Shown piece by piece: positions 22,108-37,924 of a DNA stretch of 64,000 bases. The notes beneath the pieces were generated by a model. It made no database searches and had not been told where the DNA came from. It was given only the letters and a program-made list of their open reading frames with translations. The position numbers and the translations under genes were made by a program. Each line of letters opens with the position of its first letter. Position 1 is the first letter of the stretch. The DNA is from Alphaproteobacteria bacterium (GTDB taxonomy: Bacteria; Pseudomonadota; Alphaproteobacteria; UBA1280; UBA6503): contig JAJFIW010000036.1 in NCBI GenBank assembly GCA_021774615.1, positions 37,318-101,317 on the forward strand, written 5' to 3'.

Positions 22108-23889
22108 TTGTTTATGAATGTATTAAACACACCTACACCCACAACATCAAGTAACCTGCCACCACGGCTGGCCGATTTTAAAACCTTGGCCGAAGCTATG
22201 GACTATGCAGCACAAGGGGATACAGGCTTTAACTTTTACGATGTCCGTGGGAACTTAATAGATATACTTCCGTATAAAGAAATTCGTACTAAAGCGCAAC
22301 AACAAGCACAGCAACTTTTAGGGCTTGGGTTAAAGCGTGGCGACAGAGTAGGGATAGTTGCCGACATGGAACCTTATTTCCTAACAACTTTCTTTGCTTG
22401 TCAATATGCAGGGTTAATGGCTGTGCCTTTACCAGTTATTACAGGCCTTGGCGGCAGGCACGGCTACGAGCAACAACTAGAAAAAGTACTAACCACTTCA
22501 GAAGCAAAAGTTGCCATTGGGCCAGAAGATTTACAAAGCCACCTGTCTGAAGCTACCAAAAGTATGGAGATTAAACTTCTAACTCCAGAAATGCTAGACA
22601 CTCTAGCTATAGCAGATATAGCCCTTGCACCATTGCAAGCAGATGAAGAAAGCCATATTCAGTTTTCATCGGGCAGTACACGCCACCCTAAAGGGATTAT
22701 AATCAGTCAAAGCGCAATGCTTAATAATGCACACATGATAATGGTAGACGCCCTTAAAGGTAACGAATTTGGCTGTGTGGAGCGGGTGGCATCATGGTTG
22801 CCATTTTACCACGATATGGGGCTTATTGGCTGTATGCTAACCCCAATTTGCTGCCAATTCTCGGTAGATTTATTACATACCGACTCTTTTGCACGCCAAC
22901 CACTGCAATGGCTAAAACTAATTGCTCGCAACAAAGCTACAATATCGTTTGGCCCAACTTTTGGTTACGAAATTTGTGCACGCCGTGCTTCACGCCTTAA
23001 AGACGATACCCTTGACCTTTCCTCGTGGCGGGTGGCAGGCATTGGCGGCGAGATGGTACATGCACAACCTCTTTCCGACTTTGCTAGAGCATTTGCTCCA
23101 TATGGCTTTAAAAGCAGTGCCTTTACCCCTAGCTATGGTTTGGCAGAAGCTACCTTAGCTATTTCGTTTTCAGATGTAGACAAAGACGTTATGACCGATG
23201 CTGTAGACAAAAACTCACTATTAGCAGGTGATGCAATCCCTACTACTGAAGACAGCAGTGTAGACTCTGCCGAAACTAGAGTGCTAGTATCATGTGGAAC
23301 TCCTCTAAAAGGCTATAAGGTAGAGATTAGAGCTGAAGATGAAAGTATTTTACCCGAGCGTAAAGTAGGCCGAGTATGTGCCTCGACCCCAAGCTTGATG
23401 ACAGGCTACTTCCACGATGCAGAAGCCACCGCAGAAAGCATGCTCCCCGATGGTTGGTTGGACACAGGCGACATGGGCTATATGGTCGATGGGCAACTAG
23501 TGCTTACTGGCCGCAAAAAAGATATGATCATAATTAACGGGCGTAATATTTGGCCCCAAGACATGGAATGGCACGCCGAACAAAACATAGACATTCTACG
23601 TAGCCGCGACACAGCAGCCTTTGCGGTAGAAACAGAAACTGGTAAAGAAGAACCAGTAATGCTAGTGCAAACACGCACAATGGATGCAGACAAACAATCC
23701 CAGCTTGCAAAAGATGTGCATGCCGCAGTTATTAAAAATACAGGTGTTGACTGCCGAGTAGTCCTTGTGCCACAACGTAGCTTGCCTTATACTACTTCAG
23801 GCAAGTTAAGCCGAGCAAAAGCAAAAAAAGCCTACCTCGAAGGCACCATTAAACCCTTACAAATTGCTGGAGAAGAGTCAGCAGCATGA
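22108..23889 (+). CDS. Fatty acyl-AMP ligase / acyl-ACP synthetase (AMP-dependent synthetase family)
   Basis: 593 aa with adenylation motifs (SSGSTRHPKGIIIS; GYGLAE; DTGDMGY). It sits at the head of an ACP/Spt cluster. Confidence 0.8.
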   Translation: MFMNVLNTPTPTTSSNLPPRLADFKTLAEAMDYAAQGDTGFNFYDVRGNLIDILPYKEIRTKAQQQAQQLLGLGLKRGDRVGIVADMEPYFLTTFFACQYAGLMAVPLPVITGLGGRHGYEQQLEKVLTTSEAKVAIGPEDLQSHLSEATKSMEIKLLTPEMLDTLAIADIALAPLQADEESHIQFSSGSTRHPKGIIISQSAMLNNAHMIMVDALKGNEFGCVERVASWLPFYHDMGLIGCMLTPICCQFSVDLLHTDSFARQPLQWLKLIARNKATISFGPTFGYEICARRASRLKDDTLDLSSWRVAGIGGEMVHAQPLSDFARAFAPYGFKSSAFTPSYGLAEATLAISFSDVDKDVMTDAVDKNSLLAGDAIPTTEDSSVDSAETRVLVSCGTPLKGYKVEIRAEDESILPERKVGRVCASTPSLMTGYFHDAEATAESMLPDGWLDTGDMGYMVDGQLVLTGRKKDMIIINGRNIWPQDMEWHAEQNIDILRSRDTAAFAVETETGKEEPVMLVQTRTMDADKQSQLAKDVHAAVIKNTGVDCRVVLVPQRSLPYTTSGKLSRAKAKKAYLEGTIKPLQIAGEESAA

Positions 23890-24836
23890 CCAAAAAAGCA
23901 AGCGATATGCGTATAGCCGTTACAGGTGGTTCTGGTTTTATAGGCCAGCGTCTGCTCGAGAAATTAGCTGAACAAGGCTTTAAAGTAAATGCGCTCGAAA
24001 ACCGTACTCCACTATACACCCATGAAAATATTACCCCGATTAAAGGTGGTTTGACTGACACCAATGCCTTGCAAAAACTAGTTAAAGGTTGTGATGTTGT
24101 TGTGCACGGGGCAGGGTTAATAGCTGCTCGCCGAGGCGCAGACTTTTATAAGGTTAATACCGAAGGCACTCGCCGTTTAGCACAAATTGCCAGCTACGAG
24201 AAAAACGAAAGATTTTTACTTGTTTCGAGCTTGTCTGCTCGGGAATTTGAACTGTCGGACTACGGCATGAGCAAGAAAAAAGCAGAACAATCCCTTAGCA
24301 CATTTCATAACTTAAAATGGGATGCTATACGCCCACCTGCTGTTTATGGCCCAGGGGATATGCAATTTTTGATGCTAATGAAAATGGTTAAAAGCGGCAC
24401 GGTATTGCTTCCTGCAGGTAGAGACGCCAGAGCATCTCTAGTTTTTGTTGACGACCTTGTAGACGCTGTTATTTCTTGGATATATAACGCTAAGCCAAAC
24501 AGTAATGTGTACGAAATTGACGATGGTATGGAAAATGGCTATTTGTGGCAAGATGTAGCCGCAAAAGCTGCCGAAATTCTTAATGTCAGCCCACGGTATT
24601 TGGTCCCGCCAAAATCTTTAGTGCAGTTACTATCGTATGCTAGTTTTCTTGCAGGTGAGGTAACAAGAACTATTCCGGCCTTACCGCCAGAAAAAGCACG
24701 CCAACTTTGCCACCATAACTGGGTCTGTAATGACCATACACTTGGGGAAGATATTAACTGGAAACCACAAGTTAGCTTTGACGAAGGGTTTAAAAAAACT
24801 ATTGCTTGGTATCAGGCAGAAGGGTTGTTACAATAA
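23886..24836 (+). CDS. NAD-dependent epimerase/dehydratase-family SDR (candidate 3-ketodihydrosphingosine/ceramide reductase, CerR-like)
   Basis: Rossmann motif VTGGSGFIGQRLLEKL and an SDR YxxxK region (YGMSKKKAE). The position between the acyl-ACP synthetase and the ACP mirrors the Caulobacter sphingolipid locus. Confidence 0.6.
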   Translation: MTKKASDMRIAVTGGSGFIGQRLLEKLAEQGFKVNALENRTPLYTHENITPIKGGLTDTNALQKLVKGCDVVVHGAGLIAARRGADFYKVNTEGTRRLAQIASYEKNERFLLVSSLSAREFELSDYGMSKKKAEQSLSTFHNLKWDAIRPPAVYGPGDMQFLMLMKMVKSGTVLLPAGRDARASLVFVDDLVDAVISWIYNAKPNSNVYEIDDGMENGYLWQDVAAKAAEILNVSPRYLVPPKSLVQLLSYASFLAGEVTRTIPALPPEKARQLCHHNWVCNDHTLGEDINWKPQVSFDEGFKKTIAWYQAEGLLQ

Positions 24837-24866
24837 CTACCTCTTTTTAATCTAAAGGAATAGACT

Positions 24867-25118
24867 ATGGCACAGACAACGCACGCACAAATAGTAGATA
24901 AAATCTGCGAAGAATTAAAAAGTATTGATACGGGTATCAAAATTGACCTGTCGGCTGATACTAACATGACTACTGATATCAAAGTAGACTCGTTGGATGT
25001 TATGGAATTAGTATTTGCATTAGAAGAAGCTTTTGATGCATCTATCCCAGTTAATGACTTAAGCGATGTATTTACAATTGGTGAGCTTGCATCACTAGTA
25101 CAAAAAAACATGGACTAA
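24867..25118 (+). CDS. Acyl carrier protein (dedicated, cluster-associated)
   Basis: 83 aa with the phosphopantetheine attachment motif DSLDVMELVFALEEAF. Confidence 0.85.
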   Translation: MAQTTHAQIVDKICEELKSIDTGIKIDLSADTNMTTDIKVDSLDVMELVFALEEAFDASIPVNDLSDVFTIGELASLVQKNMD

Positions 25119-25146
25119 CTAAAATATAATTTCTAAGGATAAAACT

Positions 25147-26337
25147 ATGGCAGACTTGCTCGATAAATTCCGCTCATTAAAAGAAATCCACACCAACATT
25201 GTAGAAATGGTGGGGCGTGACCCTTTGGGTGTACCATTCGAAAAAATGATATCACCAACCGAAGCGGTTATCGGCGGTAAAAATTGCGTATTGCTTGGTT
25301 CCAATAACTACCTTGGGCTTACATTCTACCAAGAGGGGATGGACGCTGCAAAGGCTGCTATTGATAAATCTGGAACTGGTACAACAGGCTCGCGGATGGC
25401 AAATGGTAGCTATAGTGGCCATATGGCTTTAGAAAGAAAGTTGGCCGAATTTTATGGTAAAAAACATGCCATGCTATTTACTACGGGCTATCAGGCTAAT
25501 GTAGGCTTTATTTCGGCTATTTCTGGCAAAGATGACTATATCTTTATCGATGCCGACAGCCACGCTAGTATTTATGATGGCTGTAAATTGGGTGATGGCA
25601 CAGTTATTCGCTTTCGCCACAATAATGCTGACGACTTAGCTCGCCGTTTGAAAAAACTCCCTGCAGATTCTAATAAAATAGTAATTGTTGAGGGCATATA
25701 CTCTATGTCGGGCGACCGTGCGCCATTAAAAGAGCTAGTTCGTGTAGCAAAAGAGTATAACGCCTACATCATGGTAGACGAAGCACACTCCTTAGGTGTT
25801 CTGGGCGAAAATGGTCGAGGGCTACTTGAAGAAGTAGGCGTTGAGGATGATGTAGACTTTGTGTTGGGTACATTCTCTAAAAGTGTTGGTACGATTGGCG
25901 GTTTTTGTGTGTCTAACCACCCTGAAATCGAAACAATGCGCTTTGCGTCACGTGCTTATATGTTTACAGCATCACCACCACCATCTATCGTGGCATCAGC
26001 AAGCGCAACCTTAGATTATATCCGCGATACACCAGAACTGCGTAAAAAACTGTGGGCAAACACCGATGTTGTCTACGATTCTTTAAAAGCTATGGGCTAT
26101 AAAGTAGGGGTAGAGAAAACCCCAGTTATAGGCATCCAAATGCCAAGCCTTGAAGAAGGCATTAGGGTTTGGAATGTATTGTTCGATAACGGTGTATATG
26201 TAAACATGGCATTACCACCAGCAATACCAATGGGTAAATGCTTACTCCGCTGCTCACCATCGGCAGCCCATACCCCCGAGCAACTCGAGCAAGTTGTGGC
26301 TGCATTTACAAAGGCACAACCTGCGGTCGCTGCTTAA
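25147..26337 (+). CDS. Alpha-oxoamine synthase; serine palmitoyltransferase-like (PLP-dependent aminotransferase class II)
   Basis: 396 aa with the PLP-lysine motif GTFSKSVGTIGG plus typical AOS blocks (GSNNYLGL; DEAHSLGVLG). Confidence 0.8.
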   Translation: MADLLDKFRSLKEIHTNIVEMVGRDPLGVPFEKMISPTEAVIGGKNCVLLGSNNYLGLTFYQEGMDAAKAAIDKSGTGTTGSRMANGSYSGHMALERKLAEFYGKKHAMLFTTGYQANVGFISAISGKDDYIFIDADSHASIYDGCKLGDGTVIRFRHNNADDLARRLKKLPADSNKIVIVEGIYSMSGDRAPLKELVRVAKEYNAYIMVDEAHSLGVLGENGRGLLEEVGVEDDVDFVLGTFSKSVGTIGGFCVSNHPEIETMRFASRAYMFTASPPPSIVASASATLDYIRDTPELRKKLWANTDVVYDSLKAMGYKVGVEKTPVIGIQMPSLEEGIRVWNVLFDNGVYVNMALPPAIPMGKCLLRCSPSAAHTPEQLEQVVAAFTKAQPAVAA

Positions 26338-26364
26338 AATGTAAATATTATAAGGAAGAGGTAA

Positions 26365-27078
26365 ATGTTTAAAATATTAGTTCTATCCTTATTTATTATT
26401 ACTCCATATTCTGCAACTGCAGAAACTATAGATGCTTTCATAAGTAAAATAGAGAAGGCATTCTCCATAGCGGATGTAGAAAATCGCAAACAAGCTATGC
26501 TAGAGCTTTTTTATTTACCAAATGCAGATGGAGAAGATATTAAAATGTACCATGATAGGATTATTGATAAACGCCTTGGTAAGCTAGAAGCTCCTAAATT
26601 GGGTACGGAGGCTTTACCCGAAGACTTTGTAATGAGCTATGTTAATAATGGTATAGAGTTTAAAGCCACGCTTACTCCTGTGGGTATGTTAACTTTTAAT
26701 GAAAAAATGAAAATACCATACGGTAAAAAACCAGATGGTAATTTTGCACTTGCTGGAATGCTTAAGCACAACGTAATAGCTAATGCCCCAGAAGACGTTG
26801 TATTAAACATGATGGTTATGGGTATGGGTAACCCTCCCGTTAGATTTTCTGGCTACTGTGATGTTATGCAAGCCAATAATAAAACTAGGCGCATGACATT
26901 CGAAGACAATAATAATGGTAATAATACATTGGCTACATGGGCGCAATATGTACACTCGTGCGAAGTAAAAAAACTATCTACACATGGTACACTTCAACTT
27001 AGAATTACCGCTGGGGATACTGATATATTTAAAAAAGTTATTTCTGAGAAAGACAGAAAAATTATTTACCAGCACTAA
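26365..27078 (+). CDS. Secreted/periplasmic hypothetical protein
   Basis: Signal peptide MFKILVLSLFIITPYSATA. No recognised domain. Confidence 0.4.
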   Translation: MFKILVLSLFIITPYSATAETIDAFISKIEKAFSIADVENRKQAMLELFYLPNADGEDIKMYHDRIIDKRLGKLEAPKLGTEALPEDFVMSYVNNGIEFKATLTPVGMLTFNEKMKIPYGKKPDGNFALAGMLKHNVIANAPEDVVLNMMVMGMGNPPVRFSGYCDVMQANNKTRRMTFEDNNNGNNTLATWAQYVHSCEVKKLSTHGTLQLRITAGDTDIFKKVISEKDRKIIYQH

Positions 27079-27998
27079 CCCACAATCTTGCGAGTAAGGA
27101 CTTTATAAAGCAATGGCCAGCCACCGATTAGGGGGTGACGGCGTTGGAAGTCTGTGGCTTCAATGCGTTCGCCGGTGTGGCGTTCGATTTTCCAGATTAT
27201 ATAGTCTACAGCGCCATCAAAAGTGAGCGGGGCTTTTATAAGGCGTAGTAGTGTTACCAGCTTACCGCTTAAGCGCCTAATTGGTGTGTTTAGTTTTTTA
27301 AATAGATGCTGCTTAGAGCTAGACTGTATAGCAAACTTGTTGTTATCTTCTTTTCTTAATAACTTAGGGTTATTTTGGGCAAAAAGTTCGGTGCATTTAT
27401 CAAACCGTGTTGGCGATGCATCGTATATAGAGTTTTGCCTTGCTTTTGACTCGCTCCGCAATTCTGACCCATATGTGTCGGCCATGCCTGTGGTCCAGAT
27501 TTCTTGTGGGGTAACTGTGCCTTGTAATAGTGGGATACTGCGGCGGTGGAATGTTTCTACTGCCATTGCTAAAGAGTCAATAACTTTGTTTTCTCTATGT
27601 TTGCCACGTGCCCAAACAAGCCTGCAAGGCTGCGAGAACCTTGCCCATATACTTGGTGCAACACTCCAACCATTAGCAGCTCTTTCAAACTGCTTAACAG
27701 TCATAACGGCGTATTTACAACGTAGAGTTTTGCCATCATGGGAAATTTCTTTGTAGTAAACATTGGGTGGTAAAATAGCACCCCAAAAACGGTGGCTTAG
27801 TGGTGAGGATGCAGCTTTAAAGCTATCGACTAGTAAGTAAAAATCCATAACAGTGTCGTCGGCTAGTTCTTTCCAAAGGCCAGAACCATAAAACATAACT
27901 GCTGCTGCACCATTATTGCCTTTATAGATGCTTTCAGCCATTGCGATAACTTCGCCTTTGCAAGGGGTAAGGCATTCGTGCTTTATAAGGTCGCGCAT
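27075..27998 (-). CDS. Nucleotidyltransferase-fold protein, possibly Tam41/Mmp37-like (phosphatidate cytidylyltransferase-like)
   Basis: Minimal NTase motif (YGSGLWKELADDTVMDFYLLVD: GS...D.D). The size and helical C-terminal half resemble the eukaryotic mitochondrial CDP-DAG synthase Tam41. This is a low-confidence family call. Confidence 0.35.
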   Translation of the reverse strand: MRDLIKHECLTPCKGEVIAMAESIYKGNNGAAAVMFYGSGLWKELADDTVMDFYLLVDSFKAASSPLSHRFWGAILPPNVYYKEISHDGKTLRCKYAVMTVKQFERAANGWSVAPSIWARFSQPCRLVWARGKHRENKVIDSLAMAVETFHRRSIPLLQGTVTPQEIWTTGMADTYGSELRSESKARQNSIYDASPTRFDKCTELFAQNNPKLLRKEDNNKFAIQSSSKQHLFKKLNTPIRRLSGKLVTLLRLIKAPLTFDGAVDYIIWKIERHTGERIEATDFQRRHPLIGGWPLLYKVLTRKIVG

Positions 27999-28006
27999 AA
28001 AAAAGG

Positions 28007-28969
28007 CTAGGCCTTTCCTAGAGCAAAAGTAAATGGCTTTTCTATACTAACCGAGATTGGGGCATCTTCAGATGCTTGGTACATTTCGCCGTCAAGTGTC
28101 CACTCTCCATCAAAACTTAGGTCGCAACTATCTGTACGGAAACCAATGCAGCCGTCATCTTTTTTTGGGTCAAGAGGGTGTTTACCGAAAAGTAAGGTTG
28201 GTAAATGGTGGATAAACCGTTTGTATGGGTTAAATACACCCATAACTGACATCCCACCTTTACCTTGTTGTTGGGGCTTTATGCCTAGCAGCAGTTTATC
28301 TAGCGATGTAATTGTGAGAAATACAGTATCTACCTTTTGGGTTGTAGAGTTGTGTTTAATAGTTGTAGGTGTTGGTTTTAATAATAAATCTTCTGTTGGT
28401 TTTCCTTGTGCTAAGCGCCATAGCATAATTGCCATAGTTACGCTTTCGCTAAAAGTGCTATTAAAACCACGGTCATGGAGGTTTTTACGTGTTTTATGGA
28501 TAACCCTAGGGATGGCAGATGTACCAAGGAAAAAACCGTATAATGGAGTTTTTCTAGTGTCTGATTTTACTGCAATTGGAGCACGAGAAACAGTTTTAAC
28601 AATACCTTCATCAGCCCATTGCAAAAGGTCTAGTATAGGTTGGTTCGAGTCGCCACTAAAACCAACATCTTTATGGGCCATATTGGTTGTGCCTGCATCA
28701 TAAAGGGCTATGGTAGGCTCTTTTTTGAATAGTTTTTTTGCCCGTAGCTCTGTCATAACGGTATCTAGTGTGCCATCGCCACCAATAATTGCTAGGTAAT
28801 CTGCATTTTTTGCTGCTATATCTTCGAGAGCTTGGGGGATGTCATCTACCGAGTTTGTTTGTTGAAAAACAATGTTCTTAGCATTGCGGACGCTATCTAT
28901 ATGGCTATGGATAGCTCCACGCCTTTTTTTACCGCTATTAGGGTTGTAAATAACACCAATAATTGCCAC
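28007..28969 (-). CDS. Lipid kinase of the DAGK_cat family (diacylglycerol/sphingosine/ceramide kinase-like)
   Basis: N-terminus IGVIYNPNSGKKR... and the catalytic GGDGT motif (IIGGDGTLDTV). This is the YegS/BmrU/LCB5-type fold. Confidence 0.7.
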   Translation of the reverse strand: MAIIGVIYNPNSGKKRRGAIHSHIDSVRNAKNIVFQQTNSVDDIPQALEDIAAKNADYLAIIGGDGTLDTVMTELRAKKLFKKEPTIALYDAGTTNMAHKDVGFSGDSNQPILDLLQWADEGIVKTVSRAPIAVKSDTRKTPLYGFFLGTSAIPRVIHKTRKNLHDRGFNSTFSESVTMAIMLWRLAQGKPTEDLLLKPTPTTIKHNSTTQKVDTVFLTITSLDKLLLGIKPQQQGKGGMSVMGVFNPYKRFIHHLPTLLFGKHPLDPKKDDGCIGFRTDSCDLSFDGEWTLDGEMYQASEDAPISVSIEKPFTFALGKA

Positions 28970-28973
28970 AGGT

Positions 28974-30146
28974 TTACCTCTCTAACCATGATATAACACG
29001 GCCACCTGTTAAAACTTTAAATTCAGCCTGTATAATCTGTAGTAAGTGTACCAGTAATGAGGCAAAAGTCCAACCAGCAATTGCCCAAACAGCCCAGTCT
29101 GGGCGGTTTATAACAACACAAGCTGTCATTAGCAGCATGTTTGGGTTGCGACGGGCTGTAATTAGCCTGAAGAAACTATCAAACTTACGCCAAATATGCA
29201 TATGGATATGGAAACGAACAATAAAGTACCCCTCTAATATGCGTTGTGCCACATAGCCACCAACAATAACTATAAGTAGCATATTAAGAGTTTCTTTTGG
29301 TAACTCCATGCCCACATGTACTAGCCCGTAAGCCCAAGCTACATACCAAAATGGTGGGTGGATAAGGTCTGTACCGTGATCTAGGATATTCCCTATTTTT
29401 GACGATGTAAATGTAACCCTAGCAAGCTTGCCGTCTACAGTGTCAAGGAATGTCATAATCCAGCCAGCTAGTAGACCTAATGCATATTGCCCTTCCCAAA
29501 AGAGGAATAGAGCATAAAACATTAGAATTATGCCAGCAATAGTAACCATATTAGGGCTTATATTTGCTTTAATACACCATTTAGTTACAACCATTGCAGG
29601 GCGAGGCCAAAAATATTTAGTAACAAAGTCTGTTACACCTTTATATGTTCCCATGAAAATTCGGTGTTCTGTTTGTTTAAGAGTCTCATCATCAAGCTTC
29701 AAACAGTAAGGAGCTTCTTTTTTGCGCAAATCCGAGTCAAAGTTACCGCCAATAGTAGCAGTTGTTTTGGCCTCCAACCCTGTAGGGATATCATTTTTGC
29801 CTTGTAGCCATTTTATTGCAGCAGCAGCTTGTTTTGGTATGGTGTGCACTGCTAGCGGGACATTATTGTCTGTCAAAACTGTTTGGGTACTGTCGATAAG
29901 ACCAGATAAAATAGGTTTGTCGTATGCATAGTCTGTCATTATTAGAATAATGGTATTATTACTGGGTACAGTGTTTAAATCTGATTCTTCAATGACTTCT
30001 ATATTCATATTGCTAAATATGCGGCGTAGGCGTTCAGCACCACTTAGCCCCCAAACTTTAGGGGAAATGTTAGTGCCACGGTTCAATAAAACCACCGTAA
30101 TGGCATTTAGTTGTGATGGTTGTTTGACATTTGCAGTATTTTTCAT
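28974..30146 (-). CDS. CDP-alcohol phosphatidyltransferase-family membrane enzyme with an extra N-terminal soluble domain (fusion)
   Basis: Exact CDP-OH PT signature DG(x2)AR(x8)G(x3)D(x3)D (DTVDGKLARVTFTSSKIGNILDHGTD) in the membrane-embedded C-terminal half. The N-terminal ~150 aa soluble domain may be a cytidylyltransferase-like module, as in archaeal IPCT/DIPPS fusions. Confidence 0.75.
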   Translation of the reverse strand: MKNTANVKQPSQLNAITVVLLNRGTNISPKVWGLSGAERLRRIFSNMNIEVIEESDLNTVPSNNTIILIMTDYAYDKPILSGLIDSTQTVLTDNNVPLAVHTIPKQAAAAIKWLQGKNDIPTGLEAKTTATIGGNFDSDLRKKEAPYCLKLDDETLKQTEHRIFMGTYKGVTDFVTKYFWPRPAMVVTKWCIKANISPNMVTIAGIILMFYALFLFWEGQYALGLLAGWIMTFLDTVDGKLARVTFTSSKIGNILDHGTDLIHPPFWYVAWAYGLVHVGMELPKETLNMLLIVIVGGYVAQRILEGYFIVRFHIHMHIWRKFDSFFRLITARRNPNMLLMTACVVINRPDWAVWAIAGWTFASLLVHLLQIIQAEFKVLTGGRVISWLER

Positions 30147-30184
30147 AACAATGACTTTACCTAAATTAAGGGATACATAAATTT

Positions 30185-31039
30185 ATGTTATTTGCACACA
30201 TTACTGATATTCATTTACCGCTTACTAAAGCGAAGCCGTACGAACTTATCAGTAAGAGGGTTTTATCGTATCTATCTTGGCATCTCAAGCGCAAAAATCA
30301 TCATATAGACGAAGTTACTAATTTGTTGTTAGAAGATATGCGTTCTTTTAAACCTGACCATATTTGTGTTACAGGTGATATTACCAACCTAGGGTTGCCC
30401 TCTGAAATGGCGCAAGCTAAGGTATGGCTTGATAACTTAGCCCCTGTCGAACAAATTAGTTTTGTTCCTGGCAACCATGACGCGCTTGTTTACTCCGCAG
30501 AAAAAAGAATTAAAGAATTTTTTGGCAAATGGATGATTTCTGATGACAGTAGTGCAGAATTACCATTTTTACAGGTTAAAGGTAATATAGCTTTTATTGG
30601 TGTAGACTCGGCCATTGCTACAAAGCCTTTTTCTGCTAGAGGCAAGGTAGGCAAAAAACAGATGGCAAGGTTAGAAAAAATTCTACAGGAAACAAAAGAA
30701 AAAGGCTTGTATCGAGTTGTTCTTATTCACCACCCTCCATTACTTGACATGGTCGAGAAAAAACGAAAAAGCTTGATTGATGCTCCAGAGCTAGAAAAAG
30801 TCTTGGAAAGATCAGGTGCTGAGCTAGTAATACATGGGCATAATCATATCCCCATTCACCGTAAAGTTGGGCAAACAGATATTTTCGGTGCAGGGTCTGC
30901 TTCTATGGTTGACCCAGACGGTAAAGGGCTTGCTCACTATAGTATTTACAGTATTGATGATAATAATAAGTTAACCGTAGAGCATCGGGTTTATGACTTA
31001 GACAGTAAAAAATTTGTTGCCTATAAATCACACGATTAA
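30185..31039 (+). CDS. Metallophosphoesterase (calcineurin-like phosphoesterase)
   Basis: Motifs DIHLP, VTGDITNLG, GNHD, and a HGHNH region. Confidence 0.75.
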   Translation: MLFAHITDIHLPLTKAKPYELISKRVLSYLSWHLKRKNHHIDEVTNLLLEDMRSFKPDHICVTGDITNLGLPSEMAQAKVWLDNLAPVEQISFVPGNHDALVYSAEKRIKEFFGKWMISDDSSAELPFLQVKGNIAFIGVDSAIATKPFSARGKVGKKQMARLEKILQETKEKGLYRVVLIHHPPLLDMVEKKRKSLIDAPELEKVLERSGAELVIHGHNHIPIHRKVGQTDIFGAGSASMVDPDGKGLAHYSIYSIDDNNKLTVEHRVYDLDSKKFVAYKSHD

Positions 31040-31130
31040 TATTTTTTCGGGTTTTTATAAAAATACTGTATACAAAAGTATGTTTATTGTGGCATAAAGA
31101 CATTTGTAAATATGGAGAAATTTTTGGTCT

Positions 31131-31901
31131 ATGAAAGCTATTATTCTTAGTGCAGGGCAAGGCACACGATTATTACCAATGACAGAACAAACACCTAAGT
31201 GTTTACTGCCTTTAGCTGGTGGTACAAATATACTTCGTTGGCAGCTAGACCAACTAGAAGAAGCTGGTATTAAAGAAACTATCGTAGTAACAGGTTTTCA
31301 TGCTGATAAAGTTTGCACAGAGCTTGCAATGCCGCGAGCCTTCATGAAAACAAAAGCAGTTTATAACCCATTTTTTAAAGTAGCCGATAACCTTGGTAGT
31401 GTTTGGATTGCACGTCAAGAGATGACAGAAGACTTCATCCTACTTAATGGTGATACTCTATTTACAACCGATGTTGTACAGCGCCTTATTGCTAATGCTC
31501 ACCAACCAATAACAGTTACAGTTGCTTATAAAGACAGATACGACTCTGATGACATGAAAGTTACCTTAAAAGACGAAGGTATTGTTCATTCAATCGGTAA
31601 AACTATTGATATGAGCAATGTTGATGCTGAGTCCATCGGTATGATTATGTTCCGTAACCATGGTAGTAAAACATTCCGTGAAGCTGTAGAAACAGTAATG
31701 ATGGATCAAACATCATTAAAAAGATATTATCTGTCTGTAATCGATATGCTTGCAAAAGGCATTACTATCGGTACAGCAGAAGCACTACAAGAAGAGTGGT
31801 GCGAGGTTGACTTCCCGCTTGACTTTGAAAGAGCGCAAAAAGCCATTACTAACTGGCAGTCTATGATGAGCCCTTCCATTCAAGGTGCTGTCACAGCTTA
31901 G
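31131..31901 (+). CDS. Nucleotidyltransferase (NTP_transferase family; LicC/phospho-sugar or phospho-alcohol cytidylyl/nucleotidyltransferase-like)
   Basis: N-terminal signature MKAIILSAGQGTRLLPMTEQTPKCLLPL. Confidence 0.7.
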   Translation: MKAIILSAGQGTRLLPMTEQTPKCLLPLAGGTNILRWQLDQLEEAGIKETIVVTGFHADKVCTELAMPRAFMKTKAVYNPFFKVADNLGSVWIARQEMTEDFILLNGDTLFTTDVVQRLIANAHQPITVTVAYKDRYDSDDMKVTLKDEGIVHSIGKTIDMSNVDAESIGMIMFRNHGSKTFREAVETVMMDQTSLKRYYLSVIDMLAKGITIGTAEALQEEWCEVDFPLDFERAQKAITNWQSMMSPSIQGAVTA

Positions 31902-31909
31902 TTTAGTTA

Positions 31910-32710
31910 CTATTGACGACTATTAAAGATCTGGCGCACTAGCGTCAGGTCTTCTTTTTTATCTACATCAATAGCAGCTTCAGGAGTTTGCATAAGCTTA
32001 AGGTAAATGTTGCACTTTGTTAGTTTATTAAGGCGTTTTATAATATTTTCTCTGCGTAGACTGCCCATCATATAGCGTAATAAAACAATAAAGCCCACAA
32101 CAAAAGCTAATTTTATTGGGGTTTTACGGCTGTTCTCAGCTTTTTGCCAGAAATTAGCTACATTGGCTGATTTTGGCTGATTAAATAAAAATAGGTTACA
32201 ACCCCCAATCGCACCATCAGCAAAGCTCAGGCGGGTACGTTTAACTTGTGGGTAGGCATTTTCTACTATATCTACTTTGGCTATTGCTGCTGTAAAATCA
32301 GCCTCTAAGGTTGCTTTATCTTGAATAAACTCGTCAAGGATCTGGTGGTCTAATAAGGGGTGGTCGGCGGTTGTAACTAAAACAGGTTTTTTTATGTCTT
32401 TAAGCCCCATAATAATGCTTTTACAAGGCGTTGTTCCCGTTTCTATAATGCGTATCTTGCCTTTATTTAGTAACTCGTATAGAAGGGGAGCTTCTTCTGA
32501 CATCGCAAACTCTTTTGAGATACTAACCGTTATACCAGCAGTTTTTGGCCATGTATTTAAAGTATGTAATACACGGTCTATCATTGGTGTGCCTGCAATA
32601 TCTACAAATGCTTTGCACAGCTTACCTTCGCCTTTGGCTATAGGGTCGCCACTTTGGCGGCTACCTGCAAGTAATAAAATATTAAATTTTTGCTCTGTTT
32701 CTTCGGGCAT
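31910..32710 (-). CDS. MobA-like/IspD-like nucleotidyltransferase (NTP_transf_3 family)
   Basis: N-terminus ILLLAGSRQSGDPIAKGEGKLCKAFVDIAGTPMIDRVL, matching the glycine-rich loop of the small cytidylyl/guanylyltransferase family. Confidence 0.5.
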   Translation of the reverse strand: MPEETEQKFNILLLAGSRQSGDPIAKGEGKLCKAFVDIAGTPMIDRVLHTLNTWPKTAGITVSISKEFAMSEEAPLLYELLNKGKIRIIETGTTPCKSIIMGLKDIKKPVLVTTADHPLLDHQILDEFIQDKATLEADFTAAIAKVDIVENAYPQVKRTRLSFADGAIGGCNLFLFNQPKSANVANFWQKAENSRKTPIKLAFVVGFIVLLRYMMGSLRRENIIKRLNKLTKCNIYLKLMQTPEAAIDVDKKEDLTLVRQIFNSRQ

Positions 32711-32712
32711 AA

Positions 32713-33840
32713 TTAGGCAATACCTTTTTCATATATACGATATTTTTTATTAAGGGTACCGCCAACAAACTCGATGATTTTGCTCATTGGTTTGTTGTCT
32801 TCTAGGATCCATGACAGCTCAACTTGTTCAAAACTTTTCTTTTGCCCAATTTCATGGATATGCACAACTAGTGCTGCAGCCAGTGCACCGCCTAGGGTTG
32901 TTCCTTGGTGCTCTTTACGAATGCCCATTAAAACAACACGCCCACCTTTTGTACCACGAACCTTTAGACGCCAAAGCAGCTTAAGCCACCCAAAAGGGAA
33001 CAAGCTTCCTTTTAAGTCTTTAATAGCTTCGTTTACATCTGGTAAGGCAATAATCATTCCTGCGGATTTACCATCAACCGAAATAATTCGTGCGAGATCT
33101 GGATCTATAAGTGGCTTTAGGTTTTTGGCCATGTAGCTTATTTCTTCTGCAGTCATTGGGGTGAAACCCCAGTTATTTGACCAGGCATCGTTAAAAATAT
33201 CCATAACTAGTTTTAGCTCTTGGTCTAAATTTTTAACATCTATTGCTCGCTCTTGTACTTTAGGGTTACGCATAGCATATTTTGCCATACGCTTTGCATT
33301 AGCAGGGAAAGGGTTTGCAACCTCAAGGTTATAAGCAAAAAGATCTTGAACTTTTTTATAACCATCTTTTTCTAGAGATTTTGCATACCAAGGCTTTGCA
33401 TAGTTCATTAGTAGGCGTGCAGAGCTATCAAAGCCTTCCACTAACAAACCAACCTCATCGTTAATAGATAAGCTATAAGGCCCCGTTACTTTTTTTATAC
33501 CTTGCCCTCTAAGCCACTCTTCAGCTTCGATTAGTAGTGCTCTTAGTGTGGTTTCGTCTGCGGCTTCTAAGCAACCAAAGTGGCCAGTGTTCTTAGAGTC
33601 TTCCTCTTGGTGGTCAACCTGTGCACTAATCCGCCCTACAGGCTTTCCTTCAGGGTTATAAGCAACAAATAATTGGCAATCAGCATGGTCAAAAAAGGGG
33701 TTTTTCTTTGGGTTTAAATGTTCTTTACGTTCCATTGTAAGTTGCTGCACGTAGTTTTCATCGTCCTGATATAAATAATTAGGAACATTGATAAAATCAG
33801 TCAGACATTTATGGCTATTTGCAGAACAAACCTTAATCAT
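32713..33840 (-). CDS. GNAT-like N-acyltransferase, candidate bacterial ceramide synthase (bCerS-like)
   Basis: 375 aa with a C-terminal GNAT-type acyl-CoA binding motif (VVLMGIRKEHQGTTLGGALAAAL). The gene is co-located with the Spt/ACP/reductase genes and a sphingolipid-type hydroxylase. The functional call is by context. Confidence 0.4.
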   Translation of the reverse strand: MIKVCSANSHKCLTDFINVPNYLYQDDENYVQQLTMERKEHLNPKKNPFFDHADCQLFVAYNPEGKPVGRISAQVDHQEEDSKNTGHFGCLEAADETTLRALLIEAEEWLRGQGIKKVTGPYSLSINDEVGLLVEGFDSSARLLMNYAKPWYAKSLEKDGYKKVQDLFAYNLEVANPFPANAKRMAKYAMRNPKVQERAIDVKNLDQELKLVMDIFNDAWSNNWGFTPMTAEEISYMAKNLKPLIDPDLARIISVDGKSAGMIIALPDVNEAIKDLKGSLFPFGWLKLLWRLKVRGTKGGRVVLMGIRKEHQGTTLGGALAAALVVHIHEIGQKKSFEQVELSWILEDNKPMSKIIEFVGGTLNKKYRIYEKGIA

Positions 33841-34625
33841 TAACTAGCAAGCTTTCTTGTTGGTTTTTTGCGGTCAACACCTTCTATGGCAGATCTCTCT
33901 TCATCTAAGTCTGGAGTTAGTCTTGCGACCCATGGGTACAGTCTAACTTCTTCGCCAGTGTAGCCAAGGTTAAATACAGTTGGGCTTTTACCACCTTGGT
34001 CTTTTGCTGATGGTTTAAATGTACCAAATAGCATGTCTGGCCAAAAGGTAATAATACCAAAGTTAACATTTTCGTTGAAAAAATGGTGCTGTAGGTGCCA
34101 ACGCTTAATTTTTCTGAAAAATGCTGTTTTTGGCTCGTAGTTTAAATGTTGCCCACAATGGCAAAACTCGTAAATACAAGTCATGATGATGCCAGCACTA
34201 ATTGCGGTTGCCATACCGGCCAACCCACCGATAGCATAGCCAATAGGTGATGTTGCAATAAAAATTGTAGGTAGTGTTGTGTACAGCGCGCCAAAAAGTA
34301 CTTTAAGGTCGTAAGGGTCGCGGTGGTGGTCAAAGTGGATACGTTTCCAAGCGGTTGCTGTTATCTTAGAGCGATACAGGAACTGACCATGCAGTATATA
34401 GCGGTGTAGCAAATACCAAACCATCGGGTAGGCGACTGCTACTGCTAGTATTATATAACCAGTAGTGCTTGCTTCAATCCCCCAATGCCATGCCAAATAG
34501 CCGCTAACTGCTGCCAAAACTAGGTAAATATGAATATCTAAGTACATAAAAAATGCTACAAAAAGGTCTTTAAGGTTCATTTCGTCAAGACGATAGTCTT
34601 GTTTCCAAATGTTAAGTGCTTTCAT
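33840..34625 (-). CDS. Fatty acid hydroxylase superfamily membrane enzyme (sphingolipid/sterol desaturase-hydroxylase-like)
   Basis: Di-iron histidine boxes HFDHHRDPYD, HCGQHLNY and HLQHHFF, with 3-4 TM helices. Confidence 0.75.
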   Translation of the reverse strand: MKALNIWKQDYRLDEMNLKDLFVAFFMYLDIHIYLVLAAVSGYLAWHWGIEASTTGYIILAVAVAYPMVWYLLHRYILHGQFLYRSKITATAWKRIHFDHHRDPYDLKVLFGALYTTLPTIFIATSPIGYAIGGLAGMATAISAGIIMTCIYEFCHCGQHLNYEPKTAFFRKIKRWHLQHHFFNENVNFGIITFWPDMLFGTFKPSAKDQGGKSPTVFNLGYTGEEVRLYPWVARLTPDLDEERSAIEGVDRKKPTRKLAS

Positions 34626-34768
34626 AATAACTACCTATACTGTTTTCTATAGTTAGAAAATACTCCTTACGAGTAAAAAGTCAAATCTGAAAAGTAGATG
34701 TTGGAGTCATTATTTATTAAGTGGTACTATATGGGTAATAATATTTCTAAGAAAGAAAGATCATTACC

Positions 34769-35998
34769 ATGTTCAAGATACCTGCAACTGCTGCCGATTT
34801 TCATGCAGAATTAACAGATCTACAGCAAAAATTCCAAGCGATGGAGCCAGAGCTAGAGCTGACCATCCGTGATCCTGAAATGGGGGTAGAAGGCTATGTT
34901 GTAGTGTGGAATACAGGCATTAGCCTTGGCGGGGCTTTACCAGCTTGTGGTAAAGGCGGAACACGAGTTACTAAGGACTTAAAGCTAGATGATGTTAAAC
35001 GCCTAGCACGAGCTATGGCTGAGAAAAATGCAGCAGCAGGCTTGCCTTTAGGCGGGGCAAAGTCTGGGTTGCGCCTTGATCCGACATCTCCAGATTACGA
35101 AAAAAAATATCGCCGTTTTGTCGAACTCTGTAAGCCAATTTTACATGAGCATGGCGGTATCTTTGGTGGTTTCGGCTATGATGTGGGGTGTATCCCGCCT
35201 AAAAATGCAATTTGGGCATGCGACCAACTAAAAAGTAACCGTAGCTTTACAGGTAAACCTGTAGATATGGGCGGTACAGACTATGACAAAGAGGGGATAG
35301 CAGGTCTTGGGGTTGCTGTTGCTGCTAAAACCCTTATTGAAGAAAATGGCAATACTGCCCAAGGCAGTACGTTCGCAGTACAAGGAGTAGGCGCAATGGG
35401 CGCAGCTATTATCCGTTACTTTGTTGATTATGGCGGAGTTTTAAAATACCTATCCGATCCTAAATACGGCGGAACATGGGGCATAAATAACACTCCATCA
35501 GCTGATCTTATCGACGCACTAGCCCATCAGAAAAAAGATATAGCTATCGACTTACTAGCAAAAGAGGCTACAAAAATATCAGACGACTGCACCGAAGCTC
35601 TCTATGCAGATGTTGATGTGCTATTCCCTAGTGCTATGGAAGATGTTTTGCATAAAGGTAATGCAGCTAAAGTTAAAGCTAAATTTATGGTAGAGGGGGC
35701 TAATAACCCAACCACAGCCGAAGCACACCAAATCTTGTTTGATAAAGGCATTAAAGCCGTGCCAGACATTATTTCTAACCCTGGTGGGATTATTGCAGCA
35801 TTTGTTGAGCTTACCTCAAAAGCAACCTCAGAAGAAAATGTAAAAACACACATTAACGTGACAAACGCTAAAGAAATGACCATTACCAAGGTATCAGAAA
35901 ATACTAAAAAATTAGTTAATATAGTGAACACTCTAAAAGTGCGCCCAGACCTAGCAGGCGACTATATGGCATACCGTAATATTTTTTATGGGCTGTAA
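34769..35998 (+). CDS. Glu/Leu/Phe/Val-family amino acid dehydrogenase (glutamate dehydrogenase-like)
   Basis: Catalytic Lys region GLPLGGAKSG and Rossmann motif FAVQGVGAMGAA. Confidence 0.75.
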   Translation: MFKIPATAADFHAELTDLQQKFQAMEPELELTIRDPEMGVEGYVVVWNTGISLGGALPACGKGGTRVTKDLKLDDVKRLARAMAEKNAAAGLPLGGAKSGLRLDPTSPDYEKKYRRFVELCKPILHEHGGIFGGFGYDVGCIPPKNAIWACDQLKSNRSFTGKPVDMGGTDYDKEGIAGLGVAVAAKTLIEENGNTAQGSTFAVQGVGAMGAAIIRYFVDYGGVLKYLSDPKYGGTWGINNTPSADLIDALAHQKKDIAIDLLAKEATKISDDCTEALYADVDVLFPSAMEDVLHKGNAAKVKAKFMVEGANNPTTAEAHQILFDKGIKAVPDIISNPGGIIAAFVELTSKATSEENVKTHINVTNAKEMTITKVSENTKKLVNIVNTLKVRPDLAGDYMAYRNIFYGL

Positions 35999-36001
35999 GC
36001 T

Positions 36002-36039
36002 AAAAAGCCCTATGTGTTTAAGTACATAGGGCTTCTTTT
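36002..36039. terminator. Bidirectional terminator (aaaaagccctatgtgtttaagtacatagggcttctttt)
   Basis: 11-bp inverted repeat flanked by A and T tracts, between convergent genes. Confidence 0.75.
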
Positions 36040-36051
36040 AGGTTGCATTAT

Positions 36052-37434
36052 TTAAGCAAGTGCTTGCTCTTTTTCTTTACTTTTTTGTGGTTTGTTATTC
36101 TCGCGATAATTACTTACTTGCGCTTCTATTTCTTGCGCGTCATCAACAACAACCATTGCTGCATGTACGACACTTCCATCCTTAAGCTTACTTGAGTGAG
36201 TTACAGTTTTTAGCCCTGTCTCATTTTGTATTTTTTCGGCTATGGCTTCTGCACCTTCTCTAGTTTCGGATGTAACATATACACTGGGGTGTTCTTCCCC
36301 TTGGATCCCATGACTAGTATAAGCTGAATGGCCTCTCGGTAATTTATTGTCTTGAATTACGCTTGAAACTTTATTTGCTGCACGAAGTTGTGCTCTGTAC
36401 TGTTCGTCATTAACCTGTTCATTTTTAACTAATGTTGGGTTTTCCTCATTTAAAACCTGAGGGTCATAATTATCAGGATATACTTTTGGGGTATTAACAG
36501 ATTTTGTTAGCGTCTCTTCTCGACGCACTAGATCTTCATCTGTTTTAGCTGATAGCTTATGCATAAGCTTGTCATTCTTATCTTTTGCTTCAAGGTAGTT
36601 ACCTATTTGTACAGTTACTTCTCGTGGGTCTTCTACAATTAGCATCGCCATGTGCTGAGTTGTACCGTCTTCAAGTTTTTTGGATGCTGTGACAAAATTT
36701 AAGCCAGTTTGTTCTTTTAGGTCATTTGCTACTGCTTGAGCAGCTTCTTGAGTATCCCCACAGTTAATACGTACATTAGGGTGTTTTGCACCACCATTAC
36801 CACCGTCAATGCTGCAAGATAGGTGGCTTGGTAGCAAACCACCACTCTTATTTCTTAGTAAGTTGCCAACATCCTGTGCTGCTGTCATTTTTTCTTTATA
36901 TCTTGTAAGAGATACCTCTTTACAAGGGTTTGGCGAGTCTTCAACAGCATAGTCTTTGCCAGTTTTTCTTTCTTCGTTATAACTAGCATATTTACTGCCC
37001 TCAACCATTTTATGACCTTTTGGGGGCTTAGATATAGGTATGCCTAATTCTTTAAATTGTTGCTCAATCTCGTACAGCTCTTTCTCCCAATATGCAGTAT
37101 CTTTTCCGTCTGCATGTACTAAAAGACCTTCTTCAGAGTTTGGGTTTATCCGTAAATCATTTTCGCCTCTAATCGGAACATCAACTACTGGGGAATCATC
37201 TTTTTCTGTGACTATACGTCCTAGAACAATGCCATAGCCTTTAGCTTCATCACCTTTACCTATTTTAAAACCAAAGTGGTAGCCTTTAAATACTCTTTTC
37301 TCACCTGGCTTGGCAGTCCTAAATTTTTCACTATCATATACAAACCCGCTACCTGTATAGTCACAATCAGGTAATTGACCACTTGCTTCCAATTGGTTGG
37401 TTATATCTTCTCTTGTATATTTAGATTCTACCAT
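36052..37434 (-). CDS. Hypothetical protein with an internal tandem duplication of a ~60-aa domain (effector-like)
   Basis: 460 aa. Two homologous modules: CGDTQEAAQAVANDLKEQTGLNFVTASKKLEDGTTQHMAMLIVEDPREVTVQIGNYLE and SETREGAEAIAEKIQNETGLKTVTHSSKLKDGSVVHAAMVVVDDAQEIEAQVSNYRE. No known catalytic motif. Confidence 0.5.
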   Translation of the reverse strand: MVESKYTREDITNQLEASGQLPDCDYTGSGFVYDSEKFRTAKPGEKRVFKGYHFGFKIGKGDEAKGYGIVLGRIVTEKDDSPVVDVPIRGENDLRINPNSEEGLLVHADGKDTAYWEKELYEIEQQFKELGIPISKPPKGHKMVEGSKYASYNEERKTGKDYAVEDSPNPCKEVSLTRYKEKMTAAQDVGNLLRNKSGGLLPSHLSCSIDGGNGGAKHPNVRINCGDTQEAAQAVANDLKEQTGLNFVTASKKLEDGTTQHMAMLIVEDPREVTVQIGNYLEAKDKNDKLMHKLSAKTDEDLVRREETLTKSVNTPKVYPDNYDPQVLNEENPTLVKNEQVNDEQYRAQLRAANKVSSVIQDNKLPRGHSAYTSHGIQGEEHPSVYVTSETREGAEAIAEKIQNETGLKTVTHSSKLKDGSVVHAAMVVVDDAQEIEAQVSNYRENNKPQKSKEKEQALA

Positions 37435-37904: not shown

Positions 37905-37924
37905 CGAAAAAACGTTTAATCGTT

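Follow-up and report, generated by a model that had tools for sequence, protein, structure and literature searches.

A Caulobacter-type sphingolipid gene cluster with predicted phosphoglycerate head-group and export genes in an uncultured marine proteobacterium

We analyzed a 64,000-nt stretch of DNA from an uncultured marine proteobacterium (the window, whose coordinates are used throughout) and, within it, a gene cluster with predicted roles in ceramide synthesis, in the addition of an anionic head group of the phosphoglycerate type, and in export. Our comparisons indicate that this cluster is an intact, functional orthologue of the Caulobacter crescentus sphingolipid locus CC_1152-CC_1165, a reading to which we assign a probability of roughly 0.88. 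All 11 genes that are required in Caulobacter to form the ceramide diphosphoglycerate CPG2 (PMC11324152) have window counterparts, as do the genes for HIT, LptF2, and LptG2 (Table 1). Every open reading frame (ORF) of the cluster is intact, and several neighbours overlap by 1-4 nt, which suggests an operon organization. An earlier note on this DNA had listed many of these ORFs and had proposed a complete Caulobacter-type cluster; the ORFs lie where it placed them and belong to the families that it named (Pfam, NCBIfam), and all five ceramide genes plus a phospho-head-group module are indeed present.

In Caulobacter, CC_1165 to CC_1162 are aasR, cerR, acpR, and spt (Olea-Ozuna et al. 2024, PMC11324152). 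The next genes encode a Tam41/CDP-diacylglycerol (CDP-DAG)-synthase-like protein (CC_1161; IPR015222), the ceramide kinase CpgB (CC_1160), a PF01066 transferase with an N-terminal cytoplasmic domain (CC_1159), a calcineurin-type phosphoesterase (CC_1158), a HIT protein (CC_1157), second copies of LptF and LptG (CC_1156 and CC_1155), the bacterial ceramide synthase bCerS (CC_1154), a MobA/CofC-like nucleotidyltransferase (CC_1153), and a PF00483 nucleotidyltransferase (CC_1152) (PMC11324152). Genetic analyses there showed that the formation of ceramide phosphoglycerate (CPG) depends on CC_1160 and CC_1161, and efficient formation of CPG2 on CC_1159, CC_1158, CC_1153, and CC_1152 (PMC11324152). 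When the locus is taken in its wider extent, CC_1152-CC_1168 (ccna_01212-01226), 14 of its 17 genes have window counterparts with the same domains (PMC11324152; PMC10331486; PMC9393093; bioRxiv 10.64898/2026.04.12.717747), and aasR-cerR-acpR-spt, the opposite-strand cpgC-cpgB-cpgA, and the phosphoesterase gene keep the same order and orientation. The window differs in that (i) its HIT-lptF-lptG-bcerS-nucleotidyltransferase-nucleotidyltransferase block is inverted relative to the first block; (ii) a di-iron hydroxylase gene precedes bcerS, whereas the hydroxylation gene reported for Caulobacter is the unlinked, DesA-family CC_0202 (PMC11324152); (iii) counterparts of CC_1166 (flippase), CC_1167, and CC_1168 (LptC2) were not seen among the window ORFs scanned; and (iv) two insertions are present.

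With an alignment of the bCerS family as query, a genome scan returned at least 80 loci, one of them (L076) from Phenylobacterium (Caulobacteraceae). The comparison set comprised 83 loci, in which genes were counted within 10 kb of the bCerS homolog; contig edges truncate many of these loci, so that the counts are minimum values. All 14 window genes have homologs in the Phenylobacterium locus (22-54% identity, tblastn), where searches with the window proteins gave the order aasR, cerR, acp, spt; on the opposite strand the Tam41-like, kinase, and CDP-alcohol transferase genes; then phosphoesterase, HIT, lptF, lptG, bCerS, and the MobA-like nucleotidyltransferase, with the second nucleotidyltransferase on the opposite strand. 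This is the published Caulobacter order, and relative to it the window block from the HIT gene to that of the 256-aa nucleotidyltransferase is inverted. Near bCerS, the 83 loci carry Spt in 46 cases, the Tam41-like gene in 45, the phosphoesterase in 44, CerR and LptF in 43 each, the kinase in 42, and LptG in 40, and the MobA-like nucleotidyltransferase is the most constant neighbour (62 loci). All six head-group genes occur together in 21 loci, 19 of which also contain LptFG. Since the 14 window genes have homologs in Phenylobacterium and most of them recur near bCerS in 32-62 of the 83 loci, this pattern indicates that their co-occurrence is not a matter of chance.

The nearest relatives of the cluster (44-81% identity) are a metagenome-assembled genome named 'Magnetococcales bacterium' (L081, GCA_002707865.1) and a Logan contig (L082), in which HIT, lptF, lptG, hydroxylase, bCerS, and the genes that follow run unbroken. 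A more distant locus from Escherichia coli (L083, NZ_CP043414.1 861915-872463) contains yghO, ligase, short-chain dehydrogenase/reductase (SDR), acyl carrier protein (ACP), spt, lptG, and lptF genes. It shares the five-gene ceramide core and a second LptG/LptF pair with the window, at identities of 42% (YghO/bCerS), 43% (ligase), 34% (SDR), 51% (Spt), and 24-26% (Lpt proteins). It lacks the kinase, Tam41-like, CDP-alcohol transferase, nucleotidyltransferase, phosphoesterase, and hydroxylase genes, in whose stead it carries yghS/T and genes for a YtfJ-family and a flippase-like protein.

Among the products of the ceramide core, the alpha-oxoamine synthase is identified by its profile scores as a serine palmitoyltransferase (Spt) rather than as BioF, Kbl, or CqsA. 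It passes the cut-off of the NCBIfam Spt equivalog NF047599 (596.8 bits, cut-off 500) and stays below those for bioF (324.8 against 426.45), Kbl (310.1 against 460), and the CqsA type (213.7 against 428); the earlier note had proposed this grouping and had set it beforehand as a test. The best matches among PDB sequences are likewise serine palmitoyltransferases, 2x8u (458 bits) and 2jg2 (439 bits), which we take to be those of Sphingomonas wittichii and Sphingomonas paucimobilis, against 215 bits for KBL, 178 for BioF, and 132 for CqsA. His139, Asp211, His214, and Lys245 align with 2jg2 positions 159, 231, 234, and 265, presumably the catalytic set of the S. paucimobilis enzyme (H159, D231, H234, and K265, the last being the pyridoxal-phosphate lysine). 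The Arg that aligns with position 390 is conserved as well. Arg378 of S. paucimobilis Spt, which we assume to contact the serine carboxylate, aligns with Leu356 in the window protein. Across 50 related loci, 47 locus-linked Spt homologs were readable here, and 46 of them (Phenylobacterium included) have a hydrophobic residue at this position (Leu, Met, Ile, Val, or Phe), and only that of Iodidimonas has an Arg. The Leu would therefore mark a subfamily of Spt rather than a defect, and a hydrophobic residue here may be a mark of the ACP-dependent enzymes.

The ligase encoded two genes upstream of spt scores 754.8 bits against the NCBIfam fatty acyl-AMP ligase model NF006624 (cut-off 600), and is 45% identical to a partial copy in the Phenylobacterium locus and 74% identical to its Magnetococcales homolog. 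The ligase gene extends 4 nt into the gene that follows. The product of the latter, an SDR of the CerR type with Epimerase/NAD-binding domains (Pfam Epimerase, 82 bits), is 35% identical to the product of the same-position gene in Phenylobacterium and 63% identical to that in the Magnetococcales genome. The ACP (Pfam PP-binding, 37 bits) has a DSL motif with Ser42, and its gene is the immediate upstream neighbour of spt, an arrangement shared with Caulobacter and E. coli.

The 375-aa acyltransferase shows a weak Pfam GNAT match, and searches of NCBIfam and the PDB returned neither a model nor a structural relative for its family, which has more than 6600 full-length homologs and 69 invariant columns among 12 diverse members. 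It is 45% identical over its full length to the Phenylobacterium protein encoded between lptG and the CC_1153-like gene. By this resemblance, which the earlier note had likewise set as a test and which extends to E. coli YghO, the protein is assigned to a family whose members occupy the bCerS position in sphingolipid loci. Separately, 45 plasmid records carry genes of this family, from Roseomonas (13), Ensifer (6), Klebsiella, Pseudomonas, Rahnella, and others. Five of these are predicted to be conjugative, and two listed E. coli records are chromosome-sized; the family thus travels on replicons other than chromosomes.

The hydroxylase gene overlaps bcerS by 1 nt, adjoins it in 40 of the 83 loci, and encodes a probable ceramide hydroxylase. 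Its product has four His boxes (HRYILH, HFDHH, HCGQH, and HLQHH), and the only related structure in the PDB is that of Scs7, the ceramide fatty-acid 2-hydroxylase of yeast (E 2.8e-9). With FA2H/Scs7-type 2-hydroxylases it shares PF04116 and the His boxes, and its gene is genetically linked to ceramide synthesis; it differs from them in lacking a cytochrome b5 domain, and the family also includes Sur2-type base hydroxylases. Ring et al. 2009, as cited in PMC10002949, tie FA2H-like enzymes to sphingolipid formation in myxobacteria, enzymes that we liken to the window protein by family description, not by sequence. The hydroxylase, whose family travels with bCerS, is the one under-described element of the cluster. 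We see even odds that this protein, translationally coupled to bCerS, is a dedicated and previously uncharacterised bacterial ceramide hydroxylase that replaces the unlinked DesA-type enzyme of Caulobacter. In a 22-kb JGI metagenome contig, a 635-aa polypeptide (P0012) combines FA_hydroxylase and bCerS domains, each 53% identical to its window counterpart; this fusion is weak evidence, because the genes overlap by 1 nt and a single-base assembly error could create it.

Turning to the head-group genes, the 307-aa Tam41-like nucleotidyltransferase has no Pfam match, even at E=10, and its profile finds only marginal matches among PDB sequences (E 0.07-0.35). Of 30 homologs, 4 match PF09139 (Tam41_Mmp37), and some are named 'Phosphatidate cytidylyltransferase' in UniRef. 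An AlphaFold (AF2) model built from 36 homologs, with a mean predicted local distance difference test score (pLDDT) of 93.4, confirms the predicted Tam41-like fold: its best PDB matches are 7ecd, a Firmicutes Tam41 (E 1.1e-9, template-modeling (TM) scores 0.55/0.62), and 6ig4, from fission yeast, and the next fold class, the aminoglycoside nucleotidyltransferases, reaches TM ~0.3. The Tam41 label of the earlier note is borne out in this way. The modeled fold matches the Tam41 CDP-diacylglycerol synthases (7ecd, 6ig2, 6ig4) along its whole length, and a Pol-beta-type nucleotidyltransferase motif (YGS ... D-x-Y) occupies invariant columns of the window family. The differences are a sequence identity of only ~14%, and a putative substrate, ceramide-1-phosphate, in place of the phosphatidate used by Tam41. 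The protein is 32% identical to the Phenylobacterium gene product at the CC_1161 position. It has been suggested that a CC_1161-type enzyme activates ceramide-1-phosphate with a nucleotide (PMC11324152), and the predicted fold of the family supports the idea of such a nucleotide-activated ceramide phosphate intermediate.

The 320-aa kinase matches Pfam DAGK_cat (54.8 bits), lies far below the YegS/BmrU cut-offs, and is 26% identical to its same-position homolog in Phenylobacterium (E 1e-21). CpgB has been described as having a GGDG ATP motif and no eukaryotic CxxxCxxC (PMC10331486); in the window kinase GGDG is at residues 63-66, and CxxxCxxC is absent from the 320-aa sequence. In the CpgA-type transferase, Pfam PF01066 (CDP-OH_P_transf, 42.6 bits) covers residues 197-329 in the C-terminal half. 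The CDP-alcohol phosphotransferase signature, for which we used the pattern D-x2-DG-x2-AR-x7-8-G-x3-D-x3-D, is complete (D235-x2-D-G-x2-A-R-x8-G-x3-D-x3-D260), and its columns are invariant in 25 homologs. This protein is 44% identical to its Phenylobacterium homolog, and its family profile matches the structures of PIP synthase and AF2299. Corresponding identities are 37% for the metallophosphoesterase, 46% for the 256-aa nucleotidyltransferase, which also scores 67 bits against the cytidylyltransferase half of the archaeal IPCT/DIPPS model, and 33% for the MobA-like nucleotidyltransferase (NTP_transf_3, 36 bits; IspD, 35 bits). A terminator-like hairpin (31926-31953) lies 3' of the 256-aa nucleotidyltransferase gene. 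By homology and position, the window head-group genes correspond one for one to CC_1161, CC_1160, CC_1159, CC_1158, CC_1153, and CC_1152, the CPG/CPG2 module.

By analogy with Caulobacter, the acyl-AMP ligase would load a fatty acid on the dedicated ACP, and Spt would condense the acyl-ACP with serine to 3-ketosphinganine, which bCerS would N-acylate before CerR reduces the 3-keto group to yield dihydroceramide. The adjacent di-iron hydroxylase would add a hydroxyl either at C2 of the acyl chain or on the long-chain base. The CpgB-type kinase would then form ceramide-1-phosphate, from which the Tam41-like enzyme would build the ceramide phosphoglycerate head group, perhaps via a nucleotide-activated ceramide phosphate, and the two nucleotidyltransferases, the CDP-alcohol phosphotransferase, and the metallophosphoesterase may add the second phosphoglycerate. 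Finally, the LptF/LptG-type pair, with an LptB encoded elsewhere, would extract the anionic lipid from the inner membrane toward the outer membrane.

Several points weigh against the assignment of the cluster as a functional orthologue. Orthology rests on the Phenylobacterium locus as a Caulobacteraceae proxy, on published gene descriptions, and on synteny; the chemistry is carried over from Caulobacter, the window contributing gene content, homology, synteny, and the Tam41 fold. The ~4-kb insertion between the hydroxylase and lptG genes might uncouple expression. Moreover, the head-group enzymes are only 26-46% identical to those of Phenylobacterium, so that the head group could differ, and the biochemical roles of CC_1161, CC_1159, CC_1158, CC_1153, and CC_1152 are unsettled even in Caulobacter (PMC11324152). 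Both of the latter points favor a pathway in which the same ceramide core receives another head group (ceramide phosphoglycerol, phosphoinositol, or another phospho-alcohol) through a CDP-ceramide/CDP-alcohol route, as do the matches of the 256-aa nucleotidyltransferase and of the transferase domain to the two halves of the archaeal inositol-phosphate cytidylyltransferase/DIPP synthase model and the resemblance of the transferase family to PIP synthases. However, these inositol-enzyme matches are far under the cut-offs (34-67 bits against 580, and 44-51 against 170-180), Pfam and NCBIfam scans of the cluster revealed no inositol-phosphate synthase or other head-group precursor gene, and all six Caulobacter CPG2 genes are together and collinear in the window. 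Another head group is thus unlikely in our judgment, and we lean modestly toward CPG2 specifically as the predicted final one. A pathway to a non-sphingolipid amino lipid, in which the synthase would take another amino acid in place of serine, like the cysteate or glycine acyltransferases, appears highly improbable. The activities of alpha-oxoamine synthases are difficult to infer from sequence, the PDB matches include a cysteate-C-fatty acyltransferase (28eh, 201 bits), and the Arg378 position is occupied by Leu; yet the serine palmitoyltransferase score is more than twice that of any other activity and above the curated cut-off, the hydrophobic residue is the rule among locus-linked homologs, the second Arg (position 390) is in place, and the partners bCerS, CerR, and ceramide kinase are specific to sphingolipid loci (PMC10331486).

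The export genes allow a further reading, namely that the LptG/LptF pair (38884-41153) is an ordinary lipopolysaccharide exporter that happens to lie near the cluster, rather than a dedicated LptF2/G2. LptF2/G2 is reported to be required for sphingolipid export in Caulobacter and to be common in alpha- and gammaproteobacterial sphingolipid loci (bioRxiv 10.64898/2026.04.12.717747). The locus-linked pair of S. wittichii is reported to be its sole pair (bioRxiv 10.64898/2026.04.12.717747), an arrangement that fits an ordinary exporter. Both window proteins score just under the respective equivalog cut-offs (LptF, 216.8 bits against 230 for TIGR04407; LptG, 224.1 against 240 for TIGR04408), LptF is about equally distant from the canonical enterobacterial LptF structure (~63 bits) and from the copy in the E. 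coli locus (26% identity in a partial-length match), and the window covers only 64 kb of the genome. On the other hand, 40-43 of the 83 loci, from several classes, have an LptF/LptG pair no more than 10 kb from bCerS, and in the two nearest relatives (53% identity for LptG, 79-81% for LptF, which is 34% identical to that of Phenylobacterium) lptG directly precedes the hydroxylase and bCerS genes. The HIT gene, whose product has an HVHFHV motif and is 61-64% identical to those of the two relatives and 45% identical to the product of the Phenylobacterium ORF exactly between phosphoesterase and lptF, adjoins the pair as CC_1157 does CC_1156. In addition, pepA and holC, which we take to be the typical neighbours of canonical lptFG, are absent beside it, a point that we count against an ordinary exporter. 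We consider an ordinary exporter doubtful, and keep the pair, as LptF2/G2 counterparts, in the Caulobacter-type cluster.

The cluster accordingly reaches farther than the right boundary at 34625 given in the earlier note, to the end of the HIT gene. Because the two nearest relatives run HIT-lptF-lptG-hydroxylase-bCerS without interruption, the glutamate dehydrogenase (GDH)-like gene, previously read as a housekeeping flank, is part of a lineage-specific insertion inside the cluster; in those relatives the insertion is absent and the hydroxylase gene adjoins lptG. The insertion consists of (i) the divergent dehydrogenase gene, to which a terminator-like hairpin (36005-36034) belongs; (ii) the 460-aa ORF, which matches no Pfam family; and (iii) three tandem cassettes, each made up of a small ORF that is predicted to encode a membrane protein, a conserved stretch upstream, and a hairpin rich in GC with a T-run after it. 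The cassette ORFs encode 90, 74, and 86 aa, the first two start MGIARGKLIM, and none gave a significant Pfam match. A further orphan ORF of 237 aa, whose stop overlaps the convergent Tam41-like gene by 4 nt, has no Pfam or NCBIfam match, and the closest relatives carry unrelated small ORFs at that spot. As candidate pathway members, the GDH-like gene, the 460-aa ORF, and the 237-aa ORF were rejected, since the 83 comparison loci, the nearest relatives included, contain no homolog of any of them.

Much of this gene content has precedents. Conservation of the five ceramide genes has been reported for alpha-, beta-, and gammaproteobacteria, and in the gammaproteobacteria Azotobacter vinelandii and Pseudomonas luteola the ceramide, CPG2, and transport genes are contiguous (PMC11324152). 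By published description, these two clusters, each a single region, and that of the betaproteobacterium Nitrosomonas eutropha have the same 13-gene content, without CC_1166-1168 and CC_1158 (PMC11324152), and so differ from the window, which has the phosphoesterase. With the window spt as query (blastn), a gene annotated spt was matched in 3853 of 5426 complete E. coli genomes, and a marine survey found Spt-like potential in 38 phyla (PMC11334938). Given the Caulobacter module, the published gammaproteobacterial copies, the E. coli spt loci, and that survey, the claims of the earlier note that the head-group module is uncharacterised and that such a cluster is undescribed in gammaproteobacteria do not stand; the module matches that of Caulobacter gene for gene.

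Neither does the proposed host, a Legionellales-like gammaproteobacterium, agree with our comparisons. The 120 best matches to the DNA ligase LigA (5529-7574) have 48-69% identity; those named by taxon are Alphaproteobacteria, Rhodospirillaceae, Magnetospirillum, Beijerinckiaceae, Magnetococcales, and 'Proteobacteria', and no gammaproteobacterial name occurs among the 120. The gene order BamD-RecN-LigA (3052-7574) is one that we take to be typical of Alphaproteobacteria. Further, the nearest relative of the cluster is the Magnetococcales genome, and the best cluster matches among listed species representatives are from Limimonas, Kiloniellaceae, and other Rhodospirillales-type genomes. The comparison of base composition that the earlier note had asked for gave near-equal GC content and third-codon-position GC content (GC3) for the cluster (0.409/0.339) and its flanks (0.424/0.348). 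As that note had stated, no integrase or transposase is present among the ORFs scanned (about a dozen ORFs of at least 150 aa lay outside the scan), and no tRNA gene was found in the window. A recent island is rejected because of these matching GC/GC3 values and the lack of mobility or tRNA genes found, and the cluster looks resident rather than recently acquired. The window contained no Rfam family, and promoter-like sites were no more frequent than in shuffled sequence.

Beyond its HIT end, the cluster is adjoined by a region (41567-47728) that encodes a DUF6134 protein, an HlyD-type adaptor, an AcrB-type RND pump, and a 4HBT thioesterase. Both nearest relatives share this arrangement (AcrB 79-81% identical), and AcrB/HlyD genes lie near bCerS in 10 of the 83 loci; a link of these neighbours to lipid or detergent handling is possible. 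Farther along, a gene at 48414-49610 (-) encodes a full-length homolog of indoleamine 2,3-dioxygenase (PF01231, 280.6 bits), a family that is mostly eukaryotic and uncommon in bacteria. A 471-aa protein encoded at 49813-51228 (+) matches ThyX (Thy1) partially, at residues 44-213 only, and is much longer than a normal ThyX. On the other side of the cluster, the 525-aa product of a gene at 13311-14888 (-) carries a class III adenylate/guanylate cyclase domain at its C terminus, and the ORFs that come after this gene, 15015-16049 and 16198-17196, match no Pfam family.

Table 1. Features of the sphingolipid cluster and of its insertions, with window coordinates and predicted counterparts.
Feature	Position	Strand	Description
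Whole cluster	22108-41600	both	ceramide core, head-group genes, hydroxylase, LptG/LptF, and HIT
AasR-type fatty acyl-AMP ligase / acyl-ACP synthetase	22108-23889	+	counterpart of CC_1165
CerR-type ceramide reductase, extended SDR	23886-24836	+	counterpart of CC_1164
Dedicated ACP, AcpR-type, 83 aa	24867-25118	+	counterpart of CC_1163
Serine palmitoyltransferase Spt, 396 aa	25147-26337	+	alpha-oxoamine synthase, counterpart of CC_1162
Orphan 237-aa ORF	26365-27078	+	N-terminal signal-peptide-like stretch (MFKILVLSLFIITPYSATA); between spt and the Tam41-like gene
Tam41-like nucleotidyltransferase, 307 aa	27075-27998	-	counterpart of CC_1161 / CpgC
CpgB-type bacterial ceramide kinase, 320 aa	28007-28969	-	counterpart of CC_1160
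CpgA-type CDP-alcohol phosphotransferase with N-terminal cytoplasmic domain	28974-30146	-	counterpart of CC_1159
Metallophosphoesterase	30185-31039	+	Pfam Metallophos 65 bits; counterpart of CC_1158
Sugar-phosphate-type nucleotidyltransferase, 256 aa	31131-31901	+	Pfam NTP_transferase, NTP_transf_3; counterpart of CC_1152
MobA/IspD/CofC-like nucleotidyltransferase	31910-32710	-	counterpart of CC_1153
Bacterial ceramide synthase bCerS, 375 aa	32713-33840	-	counterpart of CC_1154; E. coli YghO family
Di-iron membrane hydroxylase, FA2H/Scs7-Sur2 superfamily	33840-34625	-	PF04116 FA_hydroxylase 66 bits
Lineage-specific insertion	34769-38880	mixed	ELFV-type dehydrogenase, 460-aa ORF, and three tandem cassettes; splits the cluster
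Divergent ELFV-type (GDH-like) dehydrogenase	34769-35998	+	135 bits against glutamate dehydrogenase cut-offs of 620-750
Orphan 460-aa ORF	36052-37434	-	two internal ~65-aa repeats (…HPNVRINCGDTQEAAQAVANDLKEQTGL… and …HPSVYVTSETREGAEAIAEKIQNETGL…)
Three tandem ~447-bp cassettes	37563-38900		copies 74-95% identical; between the 460-aa ORF and lptG
LptG-family permease	38884-39975	-	counterpart of CC_1155 / LptG2; Pfam LptF_LptG (PF03739) 232 bits
LptF-family permease	39996-41153	-	counterpart of CC_1156 / LptF2; Pfam LptF_LptG 220.6 bits
HIT-family protein	41169-41600	-	Pfam HIT 29.9 bits (cut-off 21.5); counterpart of CC_1157

In summary, the content of this locus is already known from Caulobacter, and the window holds an ordinary additional member of its kind in an uncultured marine proteobacterium. 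The cluster opens no new question, and its use for comparative work is as a compact and clean representative of the complete locus of 14 genes. If the hydroxylase is indeed a dedicated ceramide hydroxylase, it would set the hydroxylation state that governs the binding of polymyxin to the anionic sphingolipid in Caulobacter. The cluster adds one further uncultured marine lineage to the bacteria that are predicted to make anionic sphingolipids.

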